A model generated the notes under the pieces. That model worked only from the letters and a program-made list of their open reading frames with translations, was not told the DNA's origin and searched no databases. A stretch of DNA of 64,000 nucleotides from NCBI RefSeq assembly GCF_028641065.1, contig NC_073403.1, forward strand, positions 16,926,001-16,990,000, in the 5' to 3' direction. The stretch is from Leucoraja erinacea (Eukaryota). Numbering within the stretch: the stretch's first letter is position 1; each line of letters starts with the position of its first letter. Made by a program: the position numbers and the translations under genes. Positions 9,583 to 62,319 of the stretch are shown piece after piece.

Positions 9583-10661
9583 TTACTTAGACTTTGTTCC
9601 TCCCACACTGTTGAGTGCATTGGGCAGCAAGCTTTCGCCATTCTGTTCGGTTATGTGTGACGTCATCCACCCTCGATAGGTTAGCGTCCCGGGCTTCCAA
9701 ATCCTTCTGGAATGTTCGCCTCCATGTGAGTTTTGGCCGGCCTCTTTTCCTTCTTCACCCTCGTAAACGTTCTTGAAGATGTTTATGAAAGCCCCTGGGG
9801 TATAAAGCATAAAACAGAAGAGAGAGAGAGAGAGAGAGCAGAGAGAGACAACCAAAGAAAGGAAAGAAATGGTAGAAATATATAGAAAAAAAAAAAAAAA
9901 ACTAGTGAAGAGGAGATGCAGAAAAGATTTTTTAAAAAGCTTGGATAGAAAGCAAATGCGCAGAAGCACAAGAAGCCAGGGACAGAAATGACACCCGTAC
10001 ACTCTACGGCATAGCCAGAGATCTGGGAGATTCTGGTAGTAGCTCTGGTGCCCCCATATAACACAAGAGTGGGAGAGTACGTCTGACAGAAGAAGAGCCA
10101 AACAAGCAATGGGTTGAGCACTTCAAAGAGGTATTGAATCAACCTGAACCATCGGAACTGTTTGTCTTCACTGAAGAGGAAGATGCTCTAGAACTAGAGG
10201 TGGAGGTTGGACCAATCACAGAAACGGAAGTTGCAAATGCAATTAAGAATCTGAAAAATAACAAAGTAGCAGGCCTCGACCAGATTCCAGCAGAACTACT
10301 AAAGAGCGGAGGGGAAACGTTGAGAGGGAAACTCACGATGCTATGTAATGCATGCTGGTAAGAAAAACGTGCAGCAGAAGACTGGAGGAAAGGTGTGATC
10401 GTGAAATTGCCAAAGAAAGGAGATCTTAGTGACTGTGGAAACTGGAGATGGATCACGTTGCTCTCAGTCCCAGGAAAAGTGCTTTGTTCTGTTCTGCTAC
10501 ATTGTCTTGGAGCAGCTCCTGATATGAAACTCTGTGATGAACAAGCAGGATTCCGCATGGGAAGATCCTGCAGTGAACAGGTCTTTGTGCTACGAAATGT
10601 GGTAGAACAATGCCTGGAATTTCAGAAGCCAATACCAATAAACCTCGTTGATTTAAAACAA
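9583..10661. mobile_element. RTE-clade LINE insertion with internal inversion
   Basis: Minus 9583-~9785 encodes RRKRGRPKLTWRRT..KV* with a TAAG tail. Plus ~9790-10661 encodes linker/RT (AGLDQIPAELLK, KKGDLSDCGNWR, EQAGFR). 13-bp TSD AAATCAATTGGTC at 9570-9582 and 10662-10674. Confidence 0.9.
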
Positions 10662-10699
10662 AAATCAATTGGTCACAAGCTTTAAATTGAGCTGCTCAG

Positions 10700-11186: not shown

Positions 11187-11957
11187 GCTATTGTTTGTGT
11201 GCTATCCAGTCAAATAAAAGACTATACATGAATACAATCAAGTATCCACGGTGCTCAGATTAAGGGTACAACATTTAGTGCAAAAATATAATATTGAATA
11301 CTGAATAAAGATAATTCAAAGGACAGCAATTAGATAGATTGGAGGTCAGGACAGCATTCTAGCATATGAGAATATCGTACAGTAGTCTGATAACAGCTGG
11401 GAAGAACCTGTACCTGAATCTGGATAGATATGTTTTCGAACTTCTGCACCTCTTGCTGATGGGAGAGGGGGGAAGAGGCAGTGGCCGGGGTGAGACTGGT
11501 TCTCGATTATGCTGACAGCTTTGCCGAAGCAGCGTGGTGTAAATGGGTTCAATGGAAGTGAGGTCAGTTTGTGTGATGGTCTGGGCTACATCCACAGCTC
11601 TCTGCGCACTCTTGTGGTCTTGGATGGAGCTGTTCCCAAATCAGGCTGTGATGTATCCCGTAAGATGCTTTGTATGGTGCATCTGTAGAAGTTGGTGAGG
11701 GTTGTTGGGGAGTTGGCAAACTTCCTAAGCCCCCTAAGGAAGTACAAGCATTGGTGTGCCTTCCAGGCCATAGCTACGATGTGGCTGGTCCAGTTCAAAT
11801 TATTGGTGATATTTATTCCTAGGAACTTGAAACTGTTGACCGTCACTCATCGGGCGCCATCTATGTATACTGGGGCGTGTGTACTGCTTTGCTTCCTGAA
11901 ATCAATCCAAATCTCCTTGGTCTTTGCTAACATTGAGAGAGAGGATGTTGTCTTCAA
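11187..11957 (-). mobile_element. Rex1/Babar-like LINE 3' fragment
   Basis: FKFLGINITNNLNWTSH..AHQCLYFLRGLRKF..FYRCTIQSIL. Confidence 0.85.
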
Positions 11958-17816: not shown

Positions 17817-18096
17817 CAGGGGTGGGGAACCTTTTCATGTTGGAAGGCCGCATTAAGTTAGCTGTAATCTAATAAGGCTGCATTCCAAGAAACTTCAATT
17901 AGCTACAGGATTATTTAGTTGAATTTTCTTTTACTCTTTGGTATTTTAAATACGTTCATTTTAAGATTAAAATAAAAATAATAAAAGACGATCAAAAACA
18001 TATGAATAAAAATAAAAGGATTTGTTCGACAAAATTTGGATTCATTCAAAAGGCTGTACTTAATGGCCTAGAAGGCCACAGGTTCTCCACCCTATA
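17817..18096 (+). mobile_element. hAT/Charlie-type MITE
   Basis: CAGGGGTGGGGAACC / GGTTCTCCACCCTATA ends; 8-bp TSD CTCTATAC at 17809-17816 and 18097-18104. Confidence 0.9.
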
Positions 18097-18824
18097 CTCT
18101 ATACTCATAACTGTGCAGCCGGACACAGTGCAAACTCCATCGTCAAATTCACTGACGACACCACCATCGTTGGGCGGATTACAGATGGTGATGAGTCAGA
18201 ATATAGAAGTGAGATCGACCGATTGACCAAATGGTGCCAGCACACCAACCTGTCTCTCAATGTCAGTAGAACCAATGAACTGATTGTGGACTTTGGAAGA
18301 GGAAGGACGAGGACCCACAATCCTGTTTATATCAACGTTGGTGGAGTGAGTCAAGAACTTCAAATTCCTGGGTGTGCATATTTCCGAAGATCTTTCCTGG
18401 ACCCAGCAATGATGCAATTATAAGGAAAGCACATCAACACCTTCACTTCTGGAGAAGATTACGGAGATTCGGTACATCAAGTGTACAGTAGAGAGCACAT
18501 CGACTGGTTGCAACACGGCCTGGTTTGGCAAACTTGAATGCCCAGGAGCGAAAAAGACTGCAAAATGTTGTGGACACTGCCCAGTCCATCACCGGCTCTG
18601 ATCTCCCCACCATGGAAGGGATTTATCGGAGTCGCTGCGTCAAATAGGCAACCAGCATCATCAGAGACCCACACCATCCTGACCATTTCACCATTGCCAT
18701 CGGGAAGAGGGTACAGGAGCCTGAAAACTGTAACGTCCAGGTTCAGGAACAGCTTCTTCCCTGCAGCCATCAGGCTATTACACACTACAACCTCAAATAA
18801 GCTTTGAACTACAATAGACTATTA

Positions 18825-31613: not shown

Positions 31614-32926
31614 ACGTTTGCCCAACCTCTATTGTCACTGTACCCAAAAAGGCAAGGATTACTTGTCTTAATGACTACAGGCCTGTCGCACTGACCTCTG
31701 TAGTCATGAAGACACTCGAAAGGCTTGTGCAGGCCAAGCTGAAAAATACTCCCTGCTGGACCCTCTGCAATTTGCATATCGGGCCAATAGATCTGTGGAT
31801 GATGCAGTCAGCTTGGGCCTGCACTTCATCCTACAGCACCTAGACCACCAGGGGACCTATGTGAGGATCCTGTTTGATGATTTTAGCTCTGCATTCAACA
31901 CCATTGTGCCAGAGCTACTACACTCCAAACTTTCCGAGTTGACTGTGCCTGAACCCCTTTGTCAGTGGATCACCAACTTCCTGACAGACAGGAAGCAGCA
32001 TGTGAGGCTGGGAAAGCACATCTCGGACCCGCAAACACTCAGCATAGGAGCATCGCAAGGCTGCGCACTCTCTCCTCTCCTCTACTCTCTCTACACCAAC
32101 GACTACACCTCCACAGACACCTCTGTCAAGCTTCTCAAGTTTGCGGACTCCTGATTCAGGATGGGGAGGAATCTGCCTACAGACAGGAAGTGTCACAGCT
32201 GGCGTCCTGGTGCCGTAACAACAATCTAGAGCTCAATGCTCTTAAGACAGTGGAATTGATTGTAGACTTTAGGAGAGCTCCCTCTCTCCTCACCCCACTC
32301 ACCATCAACAACACCACAGTCACATCTGTGGAGTTTTTTAAGTTCCTGGGAACCATCTTCTCCAAGGACCTTATGTGAGGGGTTACCATCAACTCCACAG
32401 TCAAAAAGGCACAACAGAGGATGTACTTCCTGCGGCAGCTGAGGAAGCCCAATCTGCCACAGGCAATGATAGTCCAATTCTACACGGCCATCTTAGAATC
32501 TGTTCTCACCTTCTCCGTCATGGTCTGGTTTGGCTCAGCCACCAAGCATGACTCCTGGAAGCTGCAGCGAATCGTCCGATTAGCAGAGAAGGTTATTGGC
32601 TGCAACCTTCCCTCCATTGATGAACTGTACACTGCAAGGGCCTGGAAGCGAGCGGGCAAGATCATCTCTGACCCCTCTCACCCTGGCCACAAACTCTTTG
32701 AATCACTTCCCTCTGGAAGGCGACCCCGGCCTGTCAAAGCTGCCACAGCCAGACATAAAAACAGATTTTATCCACAAGTAGTTGCTCTACTCAACAGCCA
32801 AAAATCTGTAGCCTCCCTTTGATCTGGTATTTTGTTGGTTCACATGCTTGATCAATGATGTTTTATCATTAATGTTTTATTATTATTAATGTTTAGTGTT
32901 TTCTGAGTCATTCGTAACTGTCACTT
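31614..32926 (+). mobile_element. Rex1/Babar-like LINE, RT-containing 3' half (frameshifted)
   Basis: LNDYRPVALTSVVMK, DFSSAFNTIVP, GASQGCALSPLLYSLYT, KFAD, QRMYFLRQLRK, LPSGRR motifs. Confidence 0.95.
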
Positions 32927-37229: not shown

Positions 37230-38400
37230 TAGATAATAGACAATAGGTGCAGGAGTAGTCCATTCGGCCCTTCGAGCCAGCACCGCCATTCAATGTGATC
37301 ATGGCTGATCATCCCCAATCAGTACCCCGTTCCTGCCTTCTCCCCACATCCCCTGACTCCACCATCTTTAAGAGCCCTATCTAGCTCTCTCTTGAAAGCA
37401 TCCAGAGAACCTGCCCCCACCTCCCTCTGAGGCAGAGAATTCCACAGACTCACAACTCTCTGTGAGAAAAAAGTGTTTCCTCGTCTCAGTTCTAAATGGC
37501 TTACCCCTTATTCTTAAACTGTGGCCCCTGGTTCTGGACTCCCCCAACATCGAGAACATGTTTCCTGCCTCTAGCATGTCCAAACACTTCAAAATCTTAT
37601 ATGTCTCAATAAGATACCCTCTCATCCTTCTTAACTCCAGTGTACAAGCCCAGCCGCTCCATTTCCTCAGCATATGACAGTCCCACCATCCCGGGAATTA
37701 ATCTTGTAAACCTACGCTGCACTTCCTCAATAGCAAGAATGTCCTTCCTCAAATTAGGGGACCAAAACTGCACACAATACTCCAGGTGCGGTCTCACTAG
37801 GGCTCTGTACAACTGCAGAAGGACCTCTTTGCTCCTATACTCGACTCTTCTTGTTATAAAGGCCAACATGCCATTCGCTTTCTTCACTGCCTGCTGTACC
37901 TGCATGCTTACTTTCATAGACTGATGAACAAGGACCCCCAGATCCCGTTGTACTTCCCCTTTTCCCACTTGAAGCCATTTGGATAGTAATCTGCCTTCCT
38001 GTTTTTGCTACCAAAGTGGATAACCTCACATTTATCCACATAAAACGTCATTTGCCATGCATCTGCTCACTCCCCCAACCTGTCCAAGTCACCCTGCATT
38101 CTCTTAGCATTCTCATCACAGTTCACACTGCCACCCAGTTTTGTGTCATCTGCAAATTTGCTGATGTTACTTTGAATCCCTTCATCCAAATCATTGATGT
38201 TTATTGTAAATAGCTGCGGTCCCAGTACCGAGCCTTGCGGTACTCCACTAGTCACTGCCTGCCATTCTGAAAGGGACTCGTTAATCCCTACTCTTTGTTT
38301 CCTGTCTACCAACCAACTTTCTATCCATGTCAGCACTCAACCCCCAATACCATGTGCCCTACATTTGCCCACTAATCTCCTAAGTGGGACCTTATCAAAT
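37230..38400 (-). mobile_element. CR1/HER1-like LINE, 1.17-kb 3' fragment with RT motifs
   Basis: [27 protein letters not shown]; LYRALVRPHLEYCVQFWSP; intact 3' tail. Confidence 0.95.
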
Positions 38401-39685: not shown

Positions 39686-40725
39686 CTAAACTAAGTGGGA
39701 CCCATTGGGTCCCATGTTCACACGGAGAGCTGGTCCCCTAACGCAATATTTCACCTCTCCACTAATTCCAATATTGGTGAGGGAGGGGGGCTTTCTGGAG
39801 CGCAAGTATGGATGTTGTGGGCCGAAGGGACTGGTTTCCAGAGGACTAGTATGGACATTGTGAGCCGAATGGATTCTTGGGATGGCAGCTCAGTCACTCA
39901 GGCCTGGTGGGCTGGCTTCGTTTCGTAGCGTTTCAGTTTTGTAGCATTTCAAGCAGAGTGCAGGCCACCAAATTCAGTTGTGTAGCATTTCAAGCAGAGT
40001 GCAGGCCACCAAATTCATTTTCATAGCATTTCAAGCAGTGCAGGCCACCAAATTTGGTTTCATAGCATTTCAAGCAGACTGCAGGCCACCAAATTCAGTT
40101 TCATAGCATTTCAAACAGAGTTCAGGCCACCGATTTCAGTTTCATTGCGTTTCAAGCAGAGTGCAGGCCACTGAATTCAGTTTCATAGCGTTTCAAGCAG
40201 AGTGCAAGCCACCAAATTCAGTTTCATAGCATTTCAAGCAGAATGCAGGCCACCAAATTCAGTTTCATAGCATTTCAAGCAGTGCAGGCCACCAAAATGC
40301 CAAACAACTCATTACATTGTCATTAAGGGCTAACAAATCATTTATTGCAAGTACATTGCAGACTCACAGTTCAGTTGATTCACAGCTTAGAATCACAGTT
40401 GTGGACTCTCCCTTGCGATCTTCCAGAGTGACTGTCACGTCCAGGCATCCGGGGTTTTATAAGTCCTGCCTCCCCCCTGGAAGGGGCATTACCTTCATCG
40501 TGGTGATTGACAGGCGAGAGGACCAATCAGCTGATCTCAAGATTTTTTAAACACCCAAAAATTTTTTATTTGTCATAGATCGGAAATATCCTTGGGGCTG
40601 CCTCAGCGGAGGAGGACTGTGAGTAAGATGGCCAAAAATCATAGCGATATATGGTAGCATTTTTTCTAAAATCAATATACAGCGCAGACAGGATGTGCTC
40701 AAAATGAGACTTTTAGTTATATAGA
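39686..40725 (-). mobile_element. Non-autonomous Helitron (family A)
   Basis: Minus strand starts TCTATATAACTAAAAG and ends with a GGGACCC-aat-GGGTCCC hairpin plus TTAG (CTAG variant). Inserted between A and T with no TSD; removal restores CR1 AAAGGAGA|TGTG. Confidence 0.9.
39930..40296. repeat. 41-bp minisatellite, 9 copies, inside the Helitron
   Basis: TTCAGTTTCATAGCATTTCAAGCAGAGTGCAGGCCACCAAA; spacing 41/39. Confidence 0.95.
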
Positions 40726-52007: not shown

Positions 52008-54304
52008 CTAGACCAAGTGCAGACCCGTTGGGTCTGTTTCCCCAACGGCATTTGCGGGGGGGAGGGGGAGCTGCGGCATCACACTCACATTAACCAACCC
52101 CCAATCACACAGGTGGGGGTAGGGGGGGTGAGAAGGGGGGAGGGAGGGGAGAGGAGGAGGAGGAAACGGGACAGATTTGGGAGGGAGAGCAGAGCGGGGT
52201 AGGGGGTGAGAGAGGGGGATGGGGAGAGAGATGTGGGGGAGGGGGGGATGGGGAGGGAGGGGGAGAGGGGGGGGGGGAGAGAGAGGGGAAAGAGTGGGGA
52301 GGGAGAGTGGAGGGGAAAGGGGGAGACGTGGAAGAGTGGGGAGGGAGGAGGAGAGAGGTAGGGGGAGTGATGGAAGAGGGACAGAGGGGTAGGAGGAAGG
52401 GTGGAGAGAGGGAAGGGGGTGGGGTAGAGAGGGAAGGGTGGTGGGGGAGAGAAGGATGGGTGGGAGAGGGAGAGGGGTGAGGAGAGGGAAGCATAGAAAC
52501 AGAAATTAAGTGCAGGAGTAGGTCATTCGGCCCTTTTTTATTGAAATATTGGGGGGGGGGAGAAGGATTTGATTAAAAATGTGTACATAAACACGACAAA
52601 ATGTAATCAGGAGTTTCTATAAGATCCCCCCTCAATCTTCTAAAATCTAGCGAGTACAAGCCGAGTCTACCCAGTCTTTCTTCATATGAAAGTCCTGACA
52701 TCCCAGGAATCAGTCTGGTGAACCTTCTCTGTACTCCCTCTATGGCAACAATGTCTTTGAGCATTGGGCATTGTGACATCACACATTGGAACGTTCACCA
52801 GGGGCTGGTGCTGCTTCTATGGGTGAGAAGCCAGTTTATTTTTTAAATATTGGGGGGGGGGGGGAGAAGGATTTGATTAAAAACGTGTACTTAAATACGC
52901 CGAAATGTAATGAGGAGCAGATACTTAGAAAGAAAAGTGAAATCTCTACCGAAATGGAAAAGATGTCGGCGATTCTGCGTTTGGTTTCGGAGTTGCAGGG
53001 AATCAAAGGAAGAAAGGCGGCCGGCAGCCGTCCATGTAAATGGATCCATTCCGATTGGACATCTGCGAGTATTGGGCATTGTGACATCACATGATGGAAC
53101 GAATCAAAAGGCAGAAAGGCAACCGGAAGGCAGGCGGCAGGCACACAGTTTTAATATGGAACTAGACCAAGTGCAGACCCGTTGGGTCTGTTTCCCCAAC
53201 GGCATTTCCGGGGGGGGGGGGGGGAGGCTGCTGTCATCACACTCACATTAACCACCCCCAAAACACACAGGTGGGGGGAGGGGGGGTGAGAAGAGGGGAG
53301 GGAGGGGAGAGGAGGAGGAGGAAGCGGGACAGATTTGGGAGGGAAAGGAGAGCGGGGTAGGGGGTGAGAGAGAGGGGGATGGGGAGAGAGATGTGTGGGA
53401 GGGGAGGGAGGGAGGGGGAGGGAGAGGGGGAGAGGGGGGGGGGGAGAGGGGGGGGGAGAAAGAAAGAGAAGGATAAAGGGGGGGAGAGAGAGAAAGGGGG
53501 GGGAAGAAAGAGAGAGGACGATGGGGGGAGGAGAAAAAGGGGGGTGGGGGGGGAGAGGGGAAGGGGGGGGGGTAGAGAGGCATGGGTGGGAGAGGGAGAG
53601 GGGTGAGGAGAGGGAAACATAGAAACATAAGATTCTATAAGATCACCCCTCAATCTTCTAAATTCTAGCGAGTACAAACCGAGTCTATCCAGTCTTTCTT
53701 CATATGAAAGTCCTGACATCCCAGGAATCAGTCTGGTTAACGTTCTCTGTACTCCATCTATGGCAAGAATGTCTTTGGGCATTGGGCATTGTGACATCAC
53801 ACGATGTAACGTTCACCAGGGGCTGGGGCTGGTGCAAAGGCATATGTAAATGGATCCATCCCGATTGGACATCTGCGAGCATTGGGCATTGTGACATCAC
53901 ACGAGGGAAACGAATCAAAAGGCAGAAAGGCAGCCGGACGGCAGGCGGCAGGCGGCAGCCACACAGTTTTAATATATAACTAGACCAAGTGCTTTGGGTC
54001 TGCTCCACCAATGGTGTGATCCCCCAATCCAATATTCCACCATGCACCCGTCTCCTCCAATGGAACTGAAGCCATTCCCAAATGTAAGATTCCAGCACTC
54101 CCCTGCCTCCCTCAGCAGTGGATTTAAAAAAAAAAATCCAATTGCACCTCCCCTGCCTGCTGCAGCAGTGAAAAGTTCAGAGTGTTCCTGTCTTGCAACT
54201 TTGTTTCGAAGTGTGTTGGAAGCTGATAGGAAGGAGCAGCCGTCAACAAATCAAAAGGCAGCCGGACGGCAGCCGGTCGGATGGCACGAGAGTTTTATAT
54301 ATTA

Positions 54305-54345
<41 letters not shown>
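52008..54345 (-). mobile_element. Head-to-tail array of three non-autonomous Helitrons (family B)
   Basis: CTAG termini at 52008, 53162 and 53980, each followed on + by ACCAAGTGC and a CAGACCC-gtt-GGGTCTG hairpin (partly deleted in the third). Outer 5' end is (TCTA)n; flanks ACATCTA|TGATTC rejoin as a CR1-type tail. Confidence 0.85.
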
Positions 54346-54502: not shown

Positions 54503-54789
54503 TAGTTGGTAAAAAGGGGACCAGTCATGGCCTTGCTGGCCAATGGATGCGCACAAGATGGGGGTCTGGTGATCAGGCTCTGGGATGTAGCATGATCTGA
54601 CCTGACTGGCTTGAGGCAATTGGGGCAGGATGTTGACAAGGTCTTATCTGGGTTATATCTCTACGGCCGTCATTTTTGGCCACCTCGCCCAGAGCCCCCC
54701 TCCGCCTTATGGGTGCGGAGGATTTTTCCCATCTATGACAAATCAGAGAGATATTAATGTTTGAAAAGAATTAACCATTCTCTCTGCTG

Positions 54790-54929
54790 CCCCTGCTGGA
54801 GGAAGGGGGAGGGACTATAAAACCAGGAAGTGGTGTGCCTCACTCACTCTCTGCAAGATGGATGAAGCCAAGGGTCACGTCTCTCTGAGCTCTGAATAAC
54901 ACTGAACAAATGTCTACACAACTGTGAGT
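54790..54929 (+). promoter_or_regulatory. Promoter/first-exon-like module in the Helitron
   Basis: TATAAAA at 54816, CAGGAAGT ETS motif, TCACTC Inr-like 26-30 nt downstream, donor ACT|GTGAGT at 54924. Confidence 0.45.
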
Positions 54930-54967
54930 ACCCTTAATGTGGTTTGAAAATGAAAATAGGGTTTGTT

Positions 54968-55800
54968 TGAAGTAAAAAGGCACTGCCTGCAAATGGTTGT
55001 TTGGGTGCTTTGGCTTGAAGTTGAAAGGCAATACTTACTGCAAATGGTGGCATGAAGTTGAAAGGCACTACTTACTGCAAATGGTGGCTTGGGTGCTTTG
55101 GCTTGAAGTTGAAATGCACAATTTACTGCAAATGGTGGCTTGGGAGCTTTGGTTTAAAGTTAAAAGGCACTACTTACTGCAAATGGTGGCTTGGGTGCTT
55201 TGGCTTGAGGTTGAAAGGCACTTCTTACTGCAAATGGTGGCTTGGGTGTTTTGCTTGAAGTTGAAAGGCACTACTTACTGCACATGGTGACTTGGGTGCT
55301 TTGGCTTGAAGTTGAAAGGCACTTCTTACTGCAAATGGTGTTTGGACTTGGGTGCTTACTTACTGCAAATGGTTGGCATGAAGTTGAAAGGCACTACTTA
55401 CTGCAAATGGTGGTATGGGTGCTTTGGCTTGAGGTAGAAAAACACTACTTACTGCAAATGGTGGCTTGGGTGCTTTGACGAAGTTGAAAGGCACTACTTA
55501 CTGCAAATGGGCTTGGGTGTTTTGCTTGAAGTTGAAAGGCATTGAAAGGCACTACTTACTGCAAATGGTGGGAGGGTGCTTTGGCTTGAAGTTGAAAGGC
55601 ACTACTTACTGCAAATGATGGCGGGTGATATGGCTTGAAGTTGAAAGGCACTTCTTACTGCAAATGGTGGCTTGGGTGCTTTGGCTTGAAGTTGAAATGC
55701 ACTATTTACAGCAAATGGTGGCTTGGGAGCTTTGGTTTAAAATTCAAAAGGCACTACTTACTGCAAATTGTGGCTTGGGAGCTTTGGCTTGAAGTTTAAA
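54968..55800. repeat. 51-bp minisatellite inside the Helitron (second block ~55997-56310)
   Basis: TTGAAGTTGAAAGGCACTACTTACTGCAAATGGTGGCTTGGGTGCTTTGGC. Confidence 0.95.
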
Positions 55801-56679
55801 ACAAATCACCATTCTCTCTGCTGCCCCTGCTGGAGGAAGGAAAAGGGACTATAAAACCAGGAAGTGGTGTGCCTCAGTCTCTGCAAGATGGATGAAGCCA
55901 AGGGTCACGTCTCTCTGAGCTCTGAATAACACTGAACAAATGTCTACACAACTGTGAGTACCCTTAATGTGGTTTGAAAATGAAAATATGGTTTGTTTGA
56001 AGTAAAAAGGCACTGCCTGCAAATGGTTGTTTGGGTGCTTTGGCTTGAAGTTGAAAGGCATTACTTACTGCAAATGGTGGCTTGGGTGCTTTGCTTGAAG
56101 TTGAAAGGCACTTCTTACTGCAAATGGTGGCTTGGGTGCTTTGGCTTGACGTTGAAAGGCACTACTTACTGCAAATGGTGGCATGAAGTTGAAAGGCACA
56201 ACTTACTGCAAATGGTGGCTTGGGTGCTTTGGCTTGAGGTTGAAAGGCACTACTTACTGCAAATGGTGGCTTGGGTGCTTTGGCTTGATGTTAAAAGGCA
56301 CTACTGCAAATGCACTTACTTCCTGTTTGCACTGTATATTAATTTTAGATAAAACACTACACTTACGGCTGTGATTTTTGGCCATCTTACTCAGTCCCCC
56401 CTCCGCTGAGCAGGTGCAGAGAATTCTTCCCATCAATGAAAAATAAGTGTTATTAGTGTTTAAAAAATGTTGAGAATATCTCTCCTGTCAATCAAGCCCT
56501 GAAAGCCACAACTTTTCTGGTGGGAGGGGGAGGGGTTATAAAACCTGGAAGTGTGGGTGTGGCTCAGTCTCTGCATGATGGGGGAAGGAGAGGTAATGAC
56601 TCTGAGCTGTGAATCAACTGAACACACTGAATATCTACTGAACTGTGAGTGTGGTGTTTTGTGTGGTTTTATGGTGGTT

Positions 56680-56938
56680 TCACCCTGCATGAAATCGTAT
56701 GAAGCTGCATTTGAATTTGGTGGCCTTGGACCCTGCTTGAAGTGGAATAAAACTGCACTGAATTTGGTGGCCTTGCACCCTGCTGAAAGTGGTATGAAAC
56801 TGCACTTGTATTTGATGGCCTTGCATCCAGCTTGAAGTGGTATGAAACTGCACTTGAATTCGTTGGCCTTGCACCCTGCTCATAGTGGTAAGAAACTGCA
56901 CTTGAATTTGGTGGTCTTGCACCCTGCTTGAAATGGAA
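56680..56938. repeat. 48-bp minisatellite inside the Helitron
   Basis: TGAAACTGCACTTGAATTTGGTGGCCTTGCACCCTGCTTGAAGTGGTA, about 5 copies. Confidence 0.9.
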
Positions 56939-57169
56939 TTTCAAGGAATAGTCATGAGTCAACTGCCAGCCCACCAGCCGTGAGTGAGCTGCCAGCAGAT
57001 CAGGCTTGAGGGACTGAGCTGCCACCCCAAGAACCCATACCAGCACTCCAGAAAGCCCCCCCCCCACTGGCCACCAATATTGGAATTGGTGGAGAGGTGG
57101 AATATTGCGTCGGAAGACCAGCCCTCCCGTGTGAAATGGGACCCAACGGGTCCCACTTAGTCTAGTAGG

Positions 57170-60097: not shown

Positions 60098-60802
60098 AGA
60101 TCATATAAATAACACTAGCTTTTTTTTTATCATCATGGAGTTTGGTCAACAATTATTGTTTCGGAGCTCACTATAACATTATCAGCTGCATCTCATTAAT
60201 CAGGGTTACACTGATTTATATCGGAATATTTTTGATTGCTAAGGGAGTGGGGAATGGGGGAGGGGAAGGGTTTTTTCCCCCTTAATCAGTGAATTTTTAA
60301 TCTGGTTACTTGTCTCAGAATGGAGATGACATGAGGTTGTGAGTAGGTGTTTTGAGAACCGCAAGGTATCAAAGGATAGCCATTCATCCTGTGTTGAACG
60401 CACTATAGCGCAGGCACATTGTGTTCCCTTCTTAAGTTTGGTCCAAAATGAGTTGAGTTTCAGAAGAAGAAATTAATTTACATAATTTTGTTTTGCATTC
60501 TTGATACATGCAACAGAGGACAAATTTCCATGTTCATTTTTGTCTTTGGCTTAGTCTAGAGATACAGTATGGGAAAGAGGCTATTCGGTCCATCCAATCC
60601 ACGCTGACCATCAATCATTCTTATCACACTAGTTCTATATTATCCCATTTTCTCATCCTACACCTTCTTGATTAGTACGGGTGTCGGAGGTTATGGGAAG
60701 AAGGCAGGAAGATTAGGTTGTGAGGGAAAGATAGATCAGCCACGATTGAATGGCAGAGTTAACTTGATGGGTTACAGGGCTTAATTCTGCTTCCATAACG
60801 TA

Positions 60803-62115
60803 CTAGACTAAGTGGGACCCGTTGGGTCCCAGCATTGCATGGGAGGGCTGGTCCCCCAACGCAATATTCCACCTCTCCACCAATTCCAATATTGGTGGCC
60901 AGTTGGGGGGGGTGGGCTTTCTGGAGCGCTAGTATGGGTGTCGTTGGCTGAAGGGACTGATATCCAGAGGGCTAGTATGGACTTTGTGGGCCGAATGGGT
61001 TATTGGGCTGGCGGCTCAGTCACTCAAGCCTGTTGTGCTGCCAGCTCACTCGCTCACGGCTGGTGGGCTGGTAGTTGACTCAAGGCTATTCCTGGAAATT
61101 CCATTTCAAGCAGGGTGCAAGGCCACCAAATTCAAGTGCAGTTTCTTACCACTTCAAGCAGGGTGCAAGGCCACCAAAATTCAAGTGCAGTTTCATACCA
61201 TTTCAAGCAGGGTGCAAGGCCACTAAAGACAGTAAGTCGTGAACTCTCCCATCTAGCAGAGACTGAGCCACAACTACACTTCGGGGTTTTATAGTCCCTC
61301 CCCAACTCCCACCAGAAGGGGAGTGGCCTTCATGGCATAATTGACAGGAGAGAGAATCTCAACATTTTTCAAACACTAATAACTCTTTTATTTTTCATCG
61401 ATGGAAAAACTCCTCGGCGCCTGATGAGCGGAGGGGGACTCTAAGTAAGATGGCTAAAAATCACAGCCACACATGGTAGCGTTTTTTCTAAAATAAATAT
61501 AAAGCGCAAACAGGAAGTGGCCAAGATTAGACTTTTAATTATGTAGAAGGCAAGGCAACTTTGATTTGGCAAGGCAACTTTGATTTGGCAAGGCAACTTT
61601 AATTAGGCAACACAGCTTTAGCATTTCCAAACCAAAGGTAACACAGCTTTAGCATTTCCAAACCAAAGGCAACACAGCTTTAGCATCTCCAAACCAAAGG
61701 CAACTCAGCTTTAGCATTTCCAAACTATATTTTCAAACCACATTAAGGGCACTGACAGGTCAGTAAAACCACTCGCAGTTTAGTAGACATGTGTTCAGTG
61801 TTATTCACAGCTCAGACTGATAGACGTGACCCTCTCGCTCCCCCATCTTGCAGAGACTGACTGAGGCACTCAACACTTCCAGGTTTTATAGTCCCTCCGG
61901 AAGGGGCGTGGCCATCGGGAGAGAGAATATCAACATTTTTTAAACAATAATAACTCTTATTTTTCATCGATGGGAAAAATCCTCTTGTCCTGCGCAGCAG
62001 AGGGGGACTATGAGTAAGATGGCCAAAAATCACAGCCGTAAGCGGCAGCGTTTTGTCTAAAATCAATATACAGATCAACAGGAAGTGGTCAAGATCAGAC
62101 TTTTAGTAATATAGA
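60803..62115 (-). mobile_element. Composite non-autonomous Helitron (family A)
   Basis: Minus strand A|TCTATATTACTAAAAG ... GGGACCC-aac-GGGTCCC ... CTAG|T. Flanks ATAACGTA|TGAAC rejoin without TSD. Second internal 5'-like end at 61547; 19-, 31- and 48-bp repeats. Confidence 0.9.
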
Positions 62116-62117
62116 TG

Positions 62118-62319
62118 AACACTAGGAGCAATTTTACAAAGGCTGATTAACCTACAAATTGCATGAATTTGTGACGTGGGAGGAAACCAGAGCACCTGGA
62201 GGATATCCATGCAGTCACATGGAGAAAGTGTAAACTCCACACAGAAAGTACCCGAGGTACCCGTTGAACTCGGGTCTACGGTGATGTGAGGCAGCGGCTC
62301 TACCAGCTGCACCACTGTG
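62118..62319 (-). mobile_element. HE1-type SINE, old
   Basis: Reverse complement of head and central domain. Confidence 0.7.

Follow-up and report, generated by a model that had tools for sequence, protein, structure and literature searches.

A Helitron family with a stacked, promoter-like TATA-initiator-donor layout in its left end

Helitrons that spread a promoter together with a splice donor are already documented in bats. HelibatN3 of Myotis bats is described, in the available accounts, as a non-autonomous Helitron present in many copies that carries a sense promoter, a first exon and a donor (PMC4778049, PMC4224331), the make-up that we predict for the family reported here; exon trapping by HelibatN3 was demonstrated in cells, and insertions of this kind provide the start of three bat transcripts (PMC4778049). 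The precedent named in the original prediction, that bat Helitrons captured and dispersed a host promoter and 5'UTR, is thus real as far as these accounts go (PMC4778049, PMC4224331). The skate family, found in a 64,000-nucleotide stretch of Leucoraja erinacea contig NC_073403.1 (the window), differs from HelibatN3 in several ways. The HelibatN3 cargo is traced in the available text to the host gene NUBPL, with six of its codons (PMC4778049), whereas the exon here looks non-coding. Unlike in HelibatN3, the TATA-initiator core is kept across diverged subfamilies and the cassette occurs in stacks of up to three. Finally, trapping by HelibatN3 was seen in cells and in transcripts (PMC4778049), whereas here no splicing was seen in one library.

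Heli1Xen1 of Xenopus laevis, which we compared by description only, is likewise a vertebrate Helitron1, and the autonomous copy is reported to have an uninterrupted ORF and a presumed 5'-end promoter with factor peaks; the available description mentions no TATA box, initiator or 5' intron, unlike the layout here (PMC12001565). In zebrafish, self-expressed non-autonomous DNA transposons are known, according to the accessible part of one report (PMC9341512). Our literature search, with subscription journals and Repbase outside its coverage, found neither a described vertebrate Helitron with a TATA promoter of its own nor a paper on this Helitron family in cartilaginous fishes. The reading that we favour, with a probability of about 0.5, is that the TATA box, initiator and donor represent the promoter and non-coding first exon that belonged to the autonomous parent itself.

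Comparison of the window with itself by BLAST, together with the element ends, bears out the original prediction that six homologous modules lie in three Helitrons (E1, E2 and E3, all non-autonomous; Table 1), and no further modules were returned. The 5'-terminal TC was located in two of the three elements (E1 at 40725 and E3 at 62115), both of which begin A/TCTATA.. (the slash marks the boundary); a search for the 5' terminus of E2 found none, and its homology begins ~75 nt into the module. At the other end, E2 and E3 have a 19-nt palindrome followed by 10 nt and CTAG/T, and E1 has a degenerate version with a shortened hairpin loop and TTAG/T. Helraiser, which has canonical Helitron1 ends, is alike in its 5'-TC, CTAG-3', AT target and 19-nt palindrome near the 3' end, the palindrome lying 11 nt from the end in the available description and 10 nt here (PMC4778049). 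Unlike Helraiser, the elements in the window have no RepHel ORF: they are 1.0-2.5 kb long, and the 28 ORFs in or beside them gave no Helitron Pfam match, either as a RepHel ORF or as a remnant. Nor did an autonomous partner with RepHel appear when these 28 and a further 329 window ORFs (stop to stop, with at least 135 non-repeat bases, drawn from 997 ORFs of at least 36 aa) were searched against Pfam, and this missing match counts against our reading.

Table 1. Coordinates of the elements, modules and associated features in the window.
Feature	Position	Strand	Description
Element E1	39686..40725	-	1040-bp single-module Helitron, A/TC start, TTAG/T end
Element E2	54662..57165	+	composite non-autonomous Helitron, three modules plus 51-bp and 48-bp minisatellites; hairpin and CTAG, then T
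E2 right end	57136..57165	+	19-nt palindrome (8-bp stem, AAC loop), 10 nt, CTAG
Element E3	60803..62115	-	complete 1313-bp non-autonomous Helitron, A/TC...CTAG/T, two modules
Module E1	40362..40725	-	CCAAT 40523-27, exact TGATTGACAG 40504-13, TATA 40461-55, initiator A 40433/40429, predicted 62-nt exon, donor GT 40367
Module E2m1	54662..54929	+	TATA 54816, initiator A 54842/54846, predicted 78-nt exon, donor GT 54924
Module E2m2	55795..55959	+	partial tandem duplicate of E2m1; TATA 55850, initiator A 55876, donor GT 55954
Module E2m3	56318..56650	+	internal left-end copy without first ~30 nt; exact TGATTGACAG 56485-94 (-), TATA 56537, initiator A 56566, donor GT 56645
Module E3m1	61771..62115	-	starts at 5' terminus; KLF box 61903-13, TATA 61890-84, initiator A 61862/61858, donor position 61776
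Module E3m2	61245..61547	-	nested intact 5' terminus at 61547, TATA 61293-87, initiator A 61264, cut before donor
51-bp minisatellite	55011..55800	+	~14 units behind E2m1 donor; again at 56017-56305
41-bp minisatellite	39932-40296	-	in E1

Four of 24 listed sequencing runs were placed on E3 only (60780-62140, 80% likeness). In reads from a related species, loose ends at the left side start directly beyond A 62116 (283 contigs, DNA-type run X19, agreement 0.36), and those at the right side directly beyond T 60802/60801 (167 contigs, agreement 0.41). Because these low-agreement ends lie exactly outside the E3 termini, they point to many independent insertions, each between A and T. By these sequence features, the family consists of rolling-circle transposons (Helitrons) that are abundant and lack genes. 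Scans by pattern for further copies were empty in metagenomes (0 and 0) and in viral collections (0); six matches in prokaryote genomes were rejected as chance 19-22-mers (8.7 expected), another prokaryote scan gave 0, and Rfam returned 0 matches. A second Helitron-like family occupies 52008-54310 (-) as three head-to-tail copies with CTAG ends at 53980, 53162 and 52008; two copies have the hairpin AGACCC-AAC-GGGTCT, and the 3' grammar is related to that of the main family. No internal TATA-initiator-donor arrangement was found in these copies, which presumably contain LINE-like pieces.

Judged by its position, the module makes up the left-terminal ~340 bp in this family, i.e. the element's own left end. 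The modules E1, E3m1 and E3m2 begin at a 5' terminus, and their TATA boxes lie 264, 225 and 254 nt inside it, in element-sense orientation. Since the module is the left end, its reiteration amounts to nested left ends plus one tandem duplication. The duplication is that of E2m1 and E2m2, which are 96% identical and were duplicated along with the 51-bp array behind them, so that the six reiterated modules originally proposed are indeed homologous but two of them are a single tandem duplicate; all other module pairs are 56-81% identical. As all six are homologous, they have one origin. A distinct minisatellite (51, 31/19, 48-49 or 41 bp) stands behind each donor or truncation point, and the retention of TATAAAACC by modules that are 56-81% identical and differ in the minisatellite behind them indicates that the cassette is older than the subfamilies. 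Multiple termini are also described in maize Helitrons, which are alike in being composite elements with internal termini, attributed to nesting; the available account details internal 3' ends, whereas here it is left ends bearing a promoter layout that are stacked (PMC3288121).

Each of the six modules has TATAAAACC followed by a TCAGTC/TCACTC-like initiator, the A of which lies 26-32 nt behind the TATA T; the spacing first described for the three plus-strand copies therefore holds in all six (+26 to +32). A donor-like site is present in five of the six, 62-82 nt past the initiator, which yields predicted exons of 62, 78, 78, 79 and 82 nt. All positions given in the original prediction for TATAAAA (six sites) and for GTGAGT (three on the plus strand, and 40362-67 on the minus strand) are correct (Table 1), as is its remark that the donor is mutated in one copy and truncated away in another: E3m1 has GCGAGT at 61776, and the site is absent from the module at 61547-61245 (E3m2). 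The family donor is GT, the letter at 61775 restoring it in 91 of 102 RNA reads and in >99% of the summed X19 DNA contig depth, so that the GC of the E3m1 donor is specific to that copy. A variant donor closer to consensus, AAT/GTAAGT, occurs unspliced in three contigs of run X4. By sequence only, five of six modules place a promoter, a first exon and a donor within the element. The predicted first exon looks non-coding; a conserved peptide in it was rejected, as the ATGs reach stops or exit in different phases and E1 has no ATG. Two further motifs lie close by. AATAAA occurs just behind the donors of E1 (40342-40347, -) and E2m3 (56746-56751, +) and could end unspliced transcripts early. All modules also have AAGATGG ~10 nt past the initiator (exact in three of six, one mismatch in the other three), and we take it to resemble a YY1 site and a Kozak context.

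The joint occurrence of TATA, initiator and donor was reproduced in 11 of 200,000 first-order Markov simulations (370 nt, module dinucleotide make-up), with criteria that were set after the motifs had been seen, and at 0 of the 63 TATAWAW sites in the remaining 58,626 bases of the window. Because the modules share one origin, the layout is one unlikely event and not six. It could have arisen by coincidence in one ancestral sequence and been copied with the element, the TATA word perhaps being a decayed internal Helitron end, itself TATA-rich. The common origin of all copies would fit such an accident, as would the TATA..AAAA words in the Helitron 5' ends of the window, the probability of finding an invariant run of nine somewhere in the module alignment (P=0.24) and the fact that no RNA use was seen; nonetheless, we regard it as very improbable in view of the simulated and background frequencies, the further promoter-type motifs at fixed offsets and a TATA context that lacks the A/TC start.

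Conservation was scored by column in five modules (E2m2 dropped; column background 0.49). TATA is invariant in 7/7 columns (P about 0.0065 assuming independent columns). Mean pair identity is 0.75 for the ETS site, 0.63 for the initiator, 0.64 for the KLF box and 0.78 for the donor (lowered by gap placement in E1), and 0.71 for non-motif columns (0.75-0.79 in the 5' 190 columns and 0.59 after TATA). TATA alone clearly exceeds the rest of the module in conservation, the 5' 190 columns being on a par with the donor, and KLF, CCAAT and ETS are patchy. The claim that the motifs persist despite divergence of the module therefore stands for TATA but not for ETS, initiator and KLF, which do not rise clearly above the non-motif mean; the fact that the motifs besides TATA do not exceed the module average in conservation counts against our reading. 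A constant order of KLF, CCAAT and ETS motifs, ascribed to most copies, was found only in part: GGAA after TATA is retained in four of six modules, but CCAAT is exact in one, and the KLF box is exact in one (GGCCACGCCCC, 61903-13, -), has one mismatch in another and at least three mismatches in the other four.

Overlooked in the first reading is the Pbx-Prep DECA motif, which is present in two modules: E1 and E2m3 each have an exact TGATTGACAG 52 nt before TATA, and E3m2 has a version with one mismatch. No other exact site occurs in the window, against a mean of 0.33 expected by chance, and a count of two was reached in 4 of 100 shuffles. At the zebrafish blastula stage the DECA motif is reported near CCAAT and Sp/Klf motifs, and only one of seven such DECA-type elements drove a reporter, according to the accessible part of that study (PMC6023610). 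A separate feature of the module is ACTTCCTG at +30 (e.g. 62086-62079, -), which forms an inverted pair with the GGAAGT after TATA. In E1, both sites of this pair read GGAT and not GGAA, a single case that could reflect pairing or a shared binding site.

The fixed place and orientation of the cassette inside the terminus, with a TATA box invariant over 20-40% divergence, favours the view that the promoter is native to the element. The GT donor of the family, the variant donor nearer to consensus, the two exact DECA motifs, the lack of a conserved frame in the exon, the presumed 5' promoter of the frog Helitron and the rise in strand ratio across TATA speak for it as well. The left-end promoter and non-coding first exon of a parent autonomous Helitron would drive its transposase gene, and the minisatellites behind each donor would have grown in the 5'-UTR intron. 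Gene-less derivatives would then inherit this native cassette and carry it passively, the two- and three-module copies arising through nesting of left ends and one tandem duplication; most copies would now be silent or tissue-restricted, and a few could act as alternative promoters. Against this stand the two vertebrate autonomous Helitrons with uninterrupted ORFs, the available descriptions of which mention no 5' intron (PMC4778049, PMC12001565).

Two groups of RNA reads bear on the origin of the module. Among them, 75 share the first ~32 nt of the terminus (to 62083) and then continue into unrelated sequence, as expected of a sibling subfamily with another 5' module, and in 61 the module, from about +40, is preceded by different sequence upstream. 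These reads indicate that terminus and module are separable, as capture would predict, and they count against a promoter native to the element. A host promoter, non-coding first exon and intron start could instead have been taken up inside a left end of ~30 nt, as in HelibatN3, and then amplified. We consider this somewhat unlikely. It accounts for the 75 reads from sibling copies in which nothing beyond the first ~32 nt is shared, for the start of E2m3 ~30 nt in and for a splice donor typical of host genes; moreover, captures of a promoter, 5'UTR and first exon are, in the available bat data, the most frequent class and have the highest copy numbers (PMC4224331). However, the invariance of TATA over 20-40% divergence is unexpected for neutral cargo, the Helitron 5' terminus forms the start of the module, and a conserved coding start is lacking, compared with the six NUBPL codons described for HelibatN3 (PMC4778049).

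Transcription was assessed in X22, a raw polyA library. It comes from a related organism, in whose DNA runs 0.40 of the sampled words occur; ~6% of the library (7,335,232 records) was examined, and 2,426 reads were placed, on E3 only. RNA starts at the initiator and splicing from the donor, which the original prediction offered as a check, were not seen on E3: in X22, read starts do not pile up at the initiator, at no position do molecules begin or end in large numbers, and splice-out from the donor is absent among the six groups of loose ends listed (the smallest of 61 reads). In addition, 102 reads run through the donor, aligned at intron position +2, and 62 extend upstream of TATA. The first-mate +/- ratio rises across TATA in the E3 modules, from 0.7-1.1 to 2.9-3.8 and from 0.3-0.75 to 1.2-1.9, then drops to 0.5-0.7 toward the 3' end, with the two outermost bins above 1. 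If the library has the usual orientation, this flip would mean a promoter-like excess of sense reads downstream and antisense reads upstream of TATA; a few host transcripts could also produce the pattern. Sense depth per DNA depth is nearly flat across E3m1 (0.71-1.39, with DNA contig depth as a rough yardstick), so the strand asymmetry comes mostly from lower depth on the opposite strand. RNA depth steps at TATA, but this was not accepted as a sign of initiation, since DNA depth also steps two-fold there and 62 reads are clipped by a subfamily indel. The lack of a start pile or of a listed splice-out at the donor, the 62 upstream reads and the flat sense depth count against the promoter's being the element's own, yet the negative is weak because it comes from one tissue sample with E3 as the sole reference, E1 and E2m3 being too diverged for good coverage.

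Selection might also act on the non-autonomous copies themselves, with factor binding or transcription at the left end opening chromatin and aiding the transposase, and with active copies serving as host alternative first exons in the embryo or germ line. TATA invariance and the flip in strand ratio at TATA are in keeping with this, module stacking would multiply the effect, the DECA, CCAAT and KLF-like sites match the zebrafish blastula-stage factor set in the available description (PMC6023610), and the promoter-bearing bat Helitrons are the most amplified in the accessible account (PMC4224331). The library without a signal of initiation or splice-out argues against it, as does the loss or change of the donor in both E3 modules in the window, and we think it distinctly unlikely. 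A broader version, which we hold to be unlikely, is that a high-copy family keeps an embryo/germline-type promoter (Pbx-Prep, NF-Y, KLF, TATA, initiator) and donor because such copies spread better, stacks the cassette in tandem and so offers hundreds or thousands of alternative first exons, some of them used by the host.

Host exons were sought in the window by Pfam and none was found, the only matches being to reverse transcriptase and LINE-type domains; short or Pfam-less exons would escape this search. LINE remnants with RVT_1 or ALKBH8_N matches lie at 10362-10682, 31675-32819, 38070-38336, 11589-11846 and 18279-18488, and ~39% of the window is repeated within it; its repeats outside the Helitron family seem to resemble those of sharks and rays. 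A PRMT5_C match at 17903-18223, below cut-off at E 4e-4, was set aside because the sequence is AT-rich and lacks PDB support, and a SNF2_assoc match was also below cut-off. The Pfam search thus gave no local target for the donors.

From the original proposal of a mobile alternative-promoter donor, the Helitron identity and the non-random layout are retained; use was not seen in one related-species polyA library, a weak negative. Without evidence of use, the family stays a well-defined repeat with a suggestive left end, and its high copy number makes it amenable to CAGE and long-read RNA tests. As a further vertebrate example after bats, one whose TATA-initiator core is conserved across old subfamilies, it would either reveal the form of a Helitron's own promoter or add an independent instance of promoter dispersal.
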